Source of the DNA: a virus
Taxonomy: Duplodnaviria; Heunggongvirae; Uroviricota; Caudoviricetes
Reading direction: 5' to 3' (one strand)
IMG/VR virus record: IMGVR_UViG_2671181012_000022
Length of the DNA: 42,877 nt
Position numbers: made by a program. Positions 24,001 through 27,000 of this stretch are shown piece after piece. Position 1 is the first letter of the stretch. Every line of letters begins with the position of its first letter.

Positions 24001-27000
24001 GGATTAAGCATGTCAGACAAACTCATAATGCTGGCGAAGATCCTCTGTGTAATCGTCGGCATTTCATTTTCACTAATGCTGGTTGCTATTTGCTTTTCCA
24101 CTGCCTGGCGCGTCTTAACTCTGTCAGGGCTGGTGGGGTGACAGAAACATGAAATGTGTACTGTATTCCGGTGACTGTCTTGATGTTATGCCTTCATTAC
24201 TACCGGGAAGTGTTGACCTGGTTTTATGTGACCCGCCGTATGGAACCATTAAAGGGCTTACACTCCGTACATGGGATAAGAGTACGACAGCATGGGACGA
24301 TGCCTTAAATCCTGAAGATATTTTCACACAGTGCGAACGACTGCTGAGGGTGGGCGGTGTGCTGGTCATGTTCAGCCAGGAGCCGCATACAAGCACGATG
24401 ATTACTCTGGCGGATAAAAACCTGCCGTTTTTATATCGTATGGTGTGGAAGAAGGAGCATTTCCCCAACCCGCTTTCAGTAAAAAAAGCACCTGTATCTT
24501 TATTCGAGGATATCGTTGTTTTCCGGAAAAAATATGACAGTGAGAAAAACCACCCGCTGAGGGAGTACGCCCGAAATATCCTTTCTTTCATTGGCCACAG
24601 GACAGACAAGGAAGTTAACAAAACACTGGGGCACCGTCGGGCAGAGCATTTTTTTTGCGTGAACACACTCCAGTTTTCCCTCTGCTCACAGGATACGTAT
24701 AACGAGTTAATTAAACGCTTTGGTATCGACCGTATGCCGGGTTTCATGACATATGAAGAAATGCGCAAAGTGAATTCCGGTTACGGCACTGTGGTTTTTA
24801 ATCTCCCTCAGGGGAAAAAATACCGCGCAAATATTCTGGAGTACGCGCGGGAGCGGGAGCGATGGCATCCGACCCAGAAGCCAGTTGCATTACTGGAAGA
24901 GCTGATTCAGACGTACAGCAACCCTGGCGACAGGGTACTGGATTTTACTATGGGGAGTGGTTCAACAGGTGTTGCATGTATCCGGACGGGGAGACGGTTT
25001 ACCGGAATAGAAAAGGATGACCGGTATTTCGCTGTTGCAAAAAAACGTCTGGAAAAAGAAAACAGTGAAATGGTGGTGATATGAACCGTGTTCTGTGTGT
25101 GGTGATTATTGTCCTGCTGGTGGCCTGTGGTGCGCTTAGTCTGGGGCTGAATCATTACCGCGATAACGCCATCACCTACAAAGCGCAGCGCGATAAAAAA
25201 GCCAGAGAGCTGGAGCTGGCAAACGCAACCATTACTGATATGCAGGTGCGCCAGCGCGATGTTGCTGCGCTCGATGCAAAATACTCGAGGGAATTAGCCG
25301 ATGCGAGAGCTGAAAATGAAACTCTGCGTGCTGATGTTGCCGCTGGTCGTAAGCGCCTGCGGGTTAAAGCCACCTGCTCCGGTACCGTGCGTGAAGCCAC
25401 CGGCACCTCCGGCGTGGATAATGCAACCGGCCCCCGACTGGCAGACACCGCTGAACGGGATTATTTCATCCTCAGAGAACGGTTGATGACAATGCAGAAG
25501 CAGCTGGAAGGGGCGCAGGAATATATCCGCACTCAGTGTATTAACTAGTATTTTTGTTATCCGGAGAATGCATGAAGAAATTACTGGTAACCGTAAAGTC
25601 TTTTCAGGGAACAATTCCGTTCCGTATTTTGCAGTGTGGTCGTGTTCTTGTTGAAGGTTCGTTCAGTGGTAAATGTACGCAATTACACTCCCGGACCTTT
25701 CAGGTGAATGCCACGAATGAAGAGCTAACCGTTGAGTGTACGATGAATGCCGCTAAATGCCGCATGGTATCCGCTGCATTACAGCCAGTGTGTTGAGCGA
25801 CCTTATTATCCATGCGCGGTATTGTCGCCGTATTCCTGCATTAACAGAGACCGCAGCCCGACCGGGAGACTCCTCTGCGCGAGTGTGCGGGGATAATCAA
25901 AAACGATACACACCGGGGTTTACCGCGTTAACGGAGCGCGGCGTTGTCCCCTCATGGTCGCTGGTCCGGTGCGATGGTGGAAGAAACCGGACGATGTGTT
26001 ACCTCGCAAGCTCTGTTATGTCATGTGTCTGATTTGTGATTTAAGTCGGATAATTGTCGTTGCCATTAAGCAGAGGATTGATGACCGACAGGGTGGCATT
26101 GTTAGAATAAGACTTATTCTTATCTGTGCCGGGAATGAAAATGAAAAGAAATCTTCCGTTAATTATTTTGTTGTCTTCTCTGGTTATGGGCTGTACGCAA
26201 CATAAAACAGATATGCCCCGACAGTTGGTTAAGGCATTACCACAATATCCGGCCTATGCAGCGGCAAATTATATAAAGGGACGGGTTGATGTGAAGTTTG
26301 ATATTGGTGCTGATGGTACTGTCACCCGAATTGAGTTTATCCGTTCAGAGCCGCACCATCTGTTTGATGAGCAGGTTGTAAAAGCGATGGCAAAATGGCG
26401 ATTTGAGAAGGACAGGCCGCGTAAAGGCGTGAAGAAAACGTTTATCTTTAGTCCTTCTGCACCCTGATTATTTCATCAGAAATTAATTATCACTCTGTTG
26501 TTATTCTGTACATCCCGGCAGGGTAAGTCTTGTTCCGTCGGATATGAAGATGAAATATTGTTGGAGGACAGTGGGTACCTGCTCCTGTAACCGAACGTTC
26601 ATTTCTCGTTATTTGTCATGCTGGCCGGGCGCAGATGCGTTGCATCTGTTGCCAGCCTTCTCCTGCAGGCTTCAATAACCCACGCTGAAAAGTTACCGGA
26701 CCCTTTATGCTCAAGGGCGATGTTGATCTGTTCAATCATGTGATTGGGGAAACGGATATTGCGGGTTGTGGTTCTGCGGGTCCGGTTTTTCGATGACATA
26801 TTTATTTCCTTTACTGATTGCCATATGACGGGGATTTTACATGGCTCAGCTTCGTACACTCCAGAGCAGAATCAAAACACTGAATACCCGACGGGTGAAT
26901 ATTCTGAAGGGTGAACAGCGTCGTGTCAGTGGCAGTGCACGTGTTTCCCTCAAGCGTCATATCTGGCTCAGGGACGCCGGGCAGTGCTGTCTCTGTGGTC

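Follow-up and report, generated by a model that had tools for sequence, protein, structure and literature searches.

A TonB C-terminal-domain lipoprotein of lambdoid prophages as a possible TonB-box decoy

Envelope lipoproteins of phages and the TonB C-terminal domain

Llp of phage T5 and Cor of phages phi80, N15 and HK022 are small lipoproteins of the outer membrane whose target, approached from the periplasm, is a TonB-dependent transporter: they block FhuA, the receptor of the phages that carry them (bioRxiv 10.64898/2026.03.26.714494). The subject of this report is the gene of another small phage lipoprotein, present in a stretch of 42,877 nucleotides from a tailed phage (IMG/VR record IMGVR_UViG_2671181012_000022), called here the window, which is a Stx2b-converting lambdoid prophage of Escherichia coli. 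Its product carries a domain of the TonB C-terminal type (TonB_C) behind a lipoprotein signal, and it may work as an outer-membrane-tethered decoy for the TonB boxes of TonB-dependent transporters. The likeness to Cor and Llp lies in the type of protein and in the proposed periplasmic action on such transporters.

Differences to these exclusion proteins concern gene position, target and fold. The TonB_C gene follows the lysis genes, unlike cor, which is adjacent to tail-fibre genes. Cor and Llp protect by blocking the receptor of their own phage, while phage 21, which carries a diverged copy of the TonB_C gene, uses LamB. A sequence-only reading of the window had proposed a comparison with Cor-type proteins, which came out negative: the fold is not Cor/Llp-like and found no significant match in the viral structure library (best BFVD match E = 0.11), a library in which the Llp fold is reported to match many proteins (bioRxiv 10.64898/2026.03.26.714494).

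The fold is that found in TonB's C-terminal domain (residues 150-239 of E. coli TonB; structures 1u07, 2gsk and 2grx), with ~40% identity and with the YP motif, the core aromatic residues and strand beta3 in common. The prophage protein is unlike TonB in having a lipoprotein signal in place of the anchor and spacer, in ending just after beta3 and in the replacement of Q160 and R166. A parallel is found in engineered periplasmic TonB fragments which, in what is cited of that work in PMC9841981, have the C-terminal domain in the periplasm without the energy-coupling part, as here, and inhibit iron import via TonB-dependent transporters when over-produced (Howard et al. 2001, J Bacteriol 183:5885). 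Those fragments were soluble, over-expressed laboratory constructs, whereas the prophage protein is natural, phage-carried and predicted to be lipid-anchored. Sensitivity to phi80 and to colicin M is said to have fallen as well in cells that produced them.

Two further groups of lipoproteins are relevant. The Bor/Iss moron of lambda codes for a small outer-membrane lipoprotein and occupies the equivalent location, flanked by the spanin genes on one side and by cos or the terminase genes on the other; it has no sequence or fold relation to the TonB_C lipoprotein, and bor lies on the opposite strand. Chromosomal TonB_C lipoproteins of Enterobacterales (Raoultella, Erwinia; P0034-P0040) share size, lipobox and domain with the prophage protein at 40-46% identity, the difference being that they are encoded by orphan genes in housekeeping neighbourhoods and not by prophages.

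The TonB_C lipoprotein and its signal peptide

The gene and the parts of its product are located as follows.

26126-26467, plus strand: open reading frame of the TonB_C lipoprotein, opening at a GTG (26126), with in-frame ATG codons at 26135 and 26141
26141-26467, plus strand: coding sequence of the 108-amino-acid TonB_C-domain lipoprotein (WP_000828070.1, RefSeq name 'TonB family protein', start at 26141)
26141-26194, plus strand: lipoprotein signal peptide and lipobox, MKRNLPLIILLSSLVMG followed by Cys18 and Thr at +2, as read from the sequence
26216-26452, plus strand: TonB C-terminal domain, residues 26-104, aligned to residues 153-231 of E. coli TonB

Position 26135 reads ATA and not ATG in at least 15 of 68 related viral loci, which makes 26141 the conserved start. 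The signal peptide, MKRN-LPLIILLSSL-VMG-C18, has a basic n-region and a hydrophobic h-region followed by the lipobox L14-V15-M16-G17-C18, which fits the pattern [LVI][ASTVIM][GAS]C. G17 and C18 are invariant in the two E. coli clades of the family (A and B, described below), and the lipobox cysteine is invariant across the family down to 41% identity. The residue at +2 is T, S or A in every aligned sequence of clades A and B and never Asp. Asp at +2 is the established signal that retains lipoproteins by avoidance of the Lol pathway. By this rule, outer-membrane sorting is predicted, and we infer that the TonB_C lipoprotein resides in that membrane.

The lipoprotein with a TonB C-terminal-like domain that had been recognised in the sequence-only reading is thus borne out in both its parts, by the LVMG-C18 lipobox and by two domain profiles that exceed their cut-offs. 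The 108-residue protein scores 56.1 bits with Pfam PF03544 (TonB_C; cut-off 24.6) and 56.5 bits with TIGR01352 (cut-off 27.1). When solved structures were searched, residues 26-104 matched the 153-231 region of E. coli TonB in a gapless alignment (E about 5e-16), and likewise the corresponding stretch of Salmonella TonB (E about 3e-16). Identity to both TonB domains is about 40%.

Fold of the TonB_C domain

The AlphaFold model was built from an alignment of 27 sequences; a model from 6 close sequences reached only a predicted local distance difference test score (pLDDT) of 56 and was discarded. Mean pLDDT of the retained model is 86.9, with values of at least 96 over residues 30-100 and low values for residues 1-20. 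Foldseek superposed it on the E. coli TonB C-terminal domain with a root-mean-square deviation (rmsd) of about 1.0-1.4 A and a target-normalised TM-score of 0.88-0.92. The rmsd is 1.3 A on 1u07, 1.0 A on TonB from the BtuB complex (2gsk_B; TM 0.92) and 1.2 A on TonB from the FhuA complex (2grx_C; TM 0.92), while TolA domains are far behind in the ranking. Structure prediction had been put forward as the check on the earlier domain assignment, with a model that was not TonB-like as the outcome that would count against it; the model obtained is clearly TonB-like.

Eight TonB residues, Y163, P164, F180, G186, F202, W213, Y215 and F230, which are of functional importance in TonB, correspond to Y36, P37, F53, G59, F75, W86, F88 and F103 of the prophage protein. 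The edge strand beta3 is present in the model at residues 94-103, and the chain ends just past it with S-P-S-A-P, TonB running eight residues further. At the other end, about 8-10 residues separate Cys18 from the TonB_C domain.

The N-terminal transmembrane anchor that couples TonB to ExbB/ExbD is absent, the N-terminus of the protein being a cleavable lipoprotein signal, and so is the proline-rich spacer that spans the periplasm. Because both anchor and spacer are lacking, no energy transduction is possible. The best match among NCBIfam TonB equivalogs, NF008084, scores 73.2 bits and stays below its cut-off of 315. The protein thus carries a TonB_C domain without being an energy transducer of the TonB kind.

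A moron cassette downstream of the lysis genes

The TonB_C gene is co-oriented with the lysis genes and is found ~590 bp 3' of Rz. Alignment with phage vB_EcoS-569R3, whose flanks are otherwise near-identical, shows that the gene belongs to a discrete segment which is cleanly missing from that sibling.

25985-26588: 604-bp insertion cassette carrying the TonB_C gene and its flanks, absent from phage vB_EcoS-569R3
25985-25994, plus strand: AACCGGACGA, left copy of the imperfect direct repeat of 10 bp that bounds the cassette
26589-26598, plus strand: right copy of the junction repeat, AACCGAACGT

The empty site of the sibling phage has a single AACCGAACGT, which suggests that the cassette was gained or lost via microhomology. 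G+C content is 0.40-0.46 within the cassette against 0.50-0.61 outside it. An AT-rich stretch ahead of the gene had also been reported from the sequence alone, and is seen as a drop in G+C content to 0.40 at 26000-26224 from 0.61 at 25850-25999. By its anatomy, namely presence or absence among collinear phages and atypical base composition, the cassette is a phage moron. A scan of 25700-26900, and thus of most of the interval from Rz to the gene, found no terminator-like site or hairpin, and the 3' flank of the gene folds no better than shuffled sequences (z = 0).

Distribution, clades and selection

The gene is widespread in E. coli, where it forms two clades, and a more distant copy is found in a Klebsiella phage.

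Clade A: identical or near-identical to the window protein; 417 of 5426 complete E. coli genomes, all copies chromosomal, up to 4 copies
Clade B: about 71% identical to the protein of the window; found in 1225 of 5426 complete E. coli genomes, UTI89 included
Klebsiella phage ST13-OXA48phi12.4: 40% identity to the window protein; gene directly after the lysis genes

Clade A carriers include Stx1a phages, JLK-2012 and Lys8385Vzw; those of clade B include phage 21, ev017 and Perceval. In phage 21 the gene is next to bor, just before cos. A position 3' of the lysis genes is found in three diverged phage lineages. The exact window protein occurs on at least 1000 contigs, and the ratio of non-synonymous to synonymous substitution rates (dN/dS) against diverged copies is 0.10-0.21; the gene is therefore under purifying selection. 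Many clade B copies (P0010, P0012, P0013, P0018, P0019 and P0021) differ only by frameshifts near codons 85-100, which swap the last beta strand for unrelated tails and may reflect recurrent decay or a mutational hotspot.

In an exhaustive profile search, other lipoproteins of ~110 residues with the same domain scored 92-115 bits while true TonB domain fragments scored ~62-66 bits. The protein thus belongs to a separate, older family of TonB_C lipoproteins and is not a recent piece of tonB. Motifs of this family are SEPxHLFD and KWRFE..KP.KG. As related TonB_C lipoproteins sit in non-phage chromosomal contexts, this type of protein is not a phage invention. Neighbours of the Raoultella and Erwinia genes include DUF1440 and glycine-zipper genes, EAL/GAF, GNAT and araBA genes.

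The Raoultella ornithinolytica homologue adjoins a gene for a DUF1440 (YagU-like) membrane protein (L006 4998-6301), and the Klebsiella phage with the 40%-identical homologue has a DUF1440 gene ~3 kb upstream, ahead of its holin gene (L013 277-903 and 3968-4336). DUF1440 and the TonB_C lipoprotein may be a recurring pairing.

A proposed decoy for TonB boxes and the competing explanations

The best explanation found for the gene product, to which a probability of about 0.4 is given, is that of an outer-membrane-tethered TonB-box decoy. The gene would have been acquired independently as a moron of lambdoid prophages, and its product would be exported and lipid-modified at Cys18. The short tether would then place the TonB_C domain just under the periplasmic mouths of TonB-dependent transporters and present there the retained beta3 edge strand, which TonB uses for pairing with TonB boxes; in FhuA, the TonB box joins this strand of TonB through beta augmentation (PMC11658791). 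The decoy would in this manner take up the TonB boxes of transporters like FhuA, BtuB, FepA and CirA, together with the TonB boxes that incoming group-B colicins carry. Additionally or instead, it might form dead-end dimers with TonB, and either action would make it a natural dominant-negative. Lysogens would admit TonB-dependent phages, colicins and microcins less readily, and would pay for this with some loss of siderophore and vitamin B12 uptake. Since phage 21, a carrier of the clade B gene, uses LamB as receptor, such protection would be directed against bacteriocins and against phages other than the carrier.

Several observations weigh against a decoy. TonB Q160 and R166, residues implicated in contact with the TonB box, are changed, Q160 to L in clade A and to Y in clade B, and R166 to Y. 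The LamB dependence of phage 21 means that the gene provides no receptor block for its own phage, and none of the PADLOC defence models fits the protein. Although blocking TonB-dependent uptake in general would be costly, the gene is carried by about 30% of complete E. coli genomes. The promoter proposed below is only a consensus match, the count from a scan of the region being equal to that expected from shuffled sequence, and no terminator was found. Finally, the small TonB_C lipoproteins of Raoultella and Erwinia, encoded by orphan chromosomal genes in housekeeping contexts, suggest a cellular role unrelated to phage exclusion.

This last point leads to the alternative of an envelope protein of lysogenic conversion, in which the TonB_C fold would serve something other than TonB-box binding and the chromosomal relatives would have the same role. 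The protein could be a tether to peptidoglycan or to another outer-membrane protein, or could provide serum or stress resistance like the Bor/Iss lipoproteins. The shared moron hotspot, with both genes side by side in phage 21, speaks for it, as do the chromosomal relatives, orphans in non-phage contexts that adjoin glycine-zipper and DUF1440 membrane-protein genes, the changes at the Q160 and R166 equivalents and the motifs proper to the family. This alternative nonetheless appears somewhat less likely than the decoy: the protein is close to true TonB domains in both structure (rmsd about 1 A) and sequence, it has retained all of the core aromatic residues, and nothing positive is found for any alternative ligand.

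Gene position raises a different possibility: an accessory of lysis or phage release, expressed late by read-through from the late promoter, which could, for example, neutralise TonB-dependent receptors or aid envelope disruption at the end of the lytic cycle. The gene is directly 3' of the lysis genes and in their orientation in both E. coli and Klebsiella phages, the scanned interval between Rz and the gene is free of terminator-like sites, and the protein matches PHROG 1267, labelled 'Rz-like spanin', at 2e-42. Such a role is nevertheless improbable, considering that a complete Rz with embedded Rz1 is already present, that the cassette is wholly absent from sibling phages and that in phage 21 antisense bor lies between the spanins and the gene. 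The globular TonB_C domain is also unlike o-spanins, which are short and proline-rich. That a captured 3' end of tonB survives here as a functionless remnant, as the old EDL933 annotation 'partial tonB-like membrane protein' and the frameshifted 3' ends of many clade B copies could indicate, is very improbable. The data on selection and distribution already largely refute it: dN/dS is low, a proper lipoprotein signal was acquired and conserved, the exact protein recurs on its many contigs, and the profile scores set the small lipoproteins apart from TonB fragments.

The decoy remains the preferred reading of the gene product among these. Taken together, the interpretation made from sequence alone is partly supported, and the superinfection-exclusion role that it had proposed, for which the engineered TonB fragments, Llp and Cor are precedents, might apply to other phages and to colicins.

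Upstream region: candidate promoter and palindrome

We infer that the gene is expressed from the prophage, for which two routes can be considered. An antiterminated late transcript is expected to read through the TonB_C gene as well, since the gene has the orientation of the lysis genes. A putative promoter of its own lies within the cassette, close to the elements listed here.

26035-26054, plus strand: upstream block TGTGAtttaagTCGGATAAT, largely common to clades A and B
26081-26108, plus strand: promoter-like site with -35 ATGACC, a 16-nt spacer and extended -10 TGtTAGAAT (26100-26108); 9/12 consensus matches plus TG
26104-26120: perfect palindrome AGAATAAG-a-CTTATTCT, which overlaps 5 of the 6 bases of the -10 hexamer and the expected transcription start
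26524-26535: incomplete repetition, TAAGTCTTGTTC, of the core of the palindrome within the 3' flank; changed in the 89%-identical locus L005

The -10-like hexamer of this candidate promoter is retained in clade B as CAGAAT or TAAAAT, and the -35 hexamer is variable within clade A. Further upstream, the TGTGAtttaagTCGGATAAT block keeps 15-18 of its 20 bases in two clade B loci while the surrounding DNA diverges. Its agreement with half-sites for CRP (8/10, p about 0.07) is not significant.

The perfect palindrome just before the gene, which the sequence-only reading had pointed out, is found exactly at 26104-26120. Nothing else in the window matches it when as many as 3 mismatches are tolerated (0.10 matches expected). 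Perfect palindromes of this class number ~10 distinct cases in the window (13 raw, some nested) against 2.4 expected from first-order Markov resampling, so the palindrome is not random, though others of its kind exist in the window. Of 68 near-identical clade A viral loci, 63 have it intact and the other 5 have one uncompensated C>T; it is intact in L005 too. The clade A loci are too similar for this intactness to show constraint. The right arm is missing in clade B, as seen in an alignment of four diverged loci, and for this reason the palindrome is not a conserved feature of the gene. The partial core copy TAAGTCTTGTTC is probably due to chance.

Placed over the -10 hexamer and the expected start, the palindrome has a repressor-like position and is a candidate regulatory site. 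Among six transcription factor motifs, compared as consensus sequences, two gave matches that are leads only: the Fur box (13/19 matches, p about 0.03 before correction for the six motifs) and ArgR (9 matches, p about 0.05). LexA and FNR sites were at background.

Two other roles were considered for the palindrome and rejected. An operator of the phage repressor was discarded as no second copy with up to 3 mismatches exists in the window, immunity region (~6539-7332) included. An RNA hairpin or terminator was discarded as the predicted stability is only -3.7 kcal/mol (z = -1.25), with z = -1.4 for the 61-nt context.

Other perfect palindromes of the window include GGCAGGGGATCCCCTGCC and GCCGTTCATATGAACGGC, back to back within 1610-1642 inside a gene annotated as exonuclease (1489-3876), and CAGTTAACATGTTAACTG at 27298-27315, between the HNH and terS genes.

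Organisation of the prophage

The region 25550-26900 is 100% identical over the 1351 bases compared to Shiga toxin-producing E. coli (STEC) strains such as 2015C-3121. The order of genes in the window is as follows.

Left end: integrase
About 6539-7332 (near 6.5-7.3 kb): immunity region
17156-18391: stx2b
21.6-25.5 kb: lysis genes
25081-25548: Rz, with Rz1 embedded at 25301-25486
25572-25796: small open reading frame, outside the TonB_C cassette
26599-26799, minus strand: YlcI/YnfO, outside the TonB_C cassette
26841-27206: HNH gene, outside the TonB_C cassette
From 27496: terS/terminase, followed by head and long-tail genes to the right end

The position between Rz and the packaging genes, assigned earlier to the TonB_C gene, is correct in that it lies 3' of Rz and 5' of terS, and incomplete in that three other genes, the small open reading frame, YlcI/YnfO and HNH, share the interval. 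A spanin identity for the product, as implied by its PHROG 1267 match, was rejected: the gene is neither paired with nor embedded in an i-spanin gene, and it is located downstream of Rz in a cassette that siblings dispense with. The label is probably a propagated error, an annotation carried over from gene position.

A gene for an N6/N4 DNA methyltransferase (24149-25084) is located between the lysozyme gene and Rz, its stop codon overlapping the Rz start, which is an unusual location for a methylase, inside the lysis cassette. A porin gene at 41291-42455, inserted into the tail-gene module, has the look of another outer-membrane moron of this prophage; as the identical RefSeq record shows two adjacent 'porin' coding sequences there, a split or a frameshift is possible. 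Frameshifts are flagged in the identical RefSeq copy for the portal gene and for tail-tip J (window 31930-34515; L015 622-4171), which may mean that the prophage is defective or that indel errors are present in the assembly. The early region codes for a relBE toxin-antitoxin pair and for hokD (6030-6509 and 12553-12708).

Significance of a possible prophage-borne TonB mimic

The gene itself has been known, with a TonB-like annotation, since the EDL933 genome. No functional study was found in the literature on prophage TonB-like lipoproteins, CP-933N or phage TonB C-terminal domains, and the genome announcement of phage 21 does not mention the gene. The mode of action proposed here would add a new version to those of phage lipoproteins of exclusion and lysogenic conversion.

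A broader proposal, bold and doubtful at present, is that a phage-borne natural dominant-negative mimic of TonB, present in ~30% of complete E. coli genomes, STEC and uropathogenic E. coli included, is tethered beneath the outer membrane and throttles all TonB-dependent gates of the cell. Carriers would thereby gain a broad tolerance that extends to TonB-dependent phages, to group-B colicins and microcins, and perhaps to antibiotics conjugated to siderophores. The clade A palindrome over the promoter, weakly similar to a Fur box (13/19), would make the throttle conditional.

To test the prediction that the TonB_C lipoprotein is a decoy, cloning this single gene and running routine assays of phage and colicin sensitivity and of iron uptake would suffice. 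If true, it would define a new route of host protection by prophages, in which the coupling domain of the host is copied to jam the TonB-box handshake shared by every TonB-dependent transporter, in contrast with Cor and Llp, which plug one receptor. The gene is very common in pathogenic E. coli and is under purifying selection. A decoy of this kind would be relevant for host range in phage therapy, for the ecology of colicins and microcins and possibly for siderophore-linked drug uptake.

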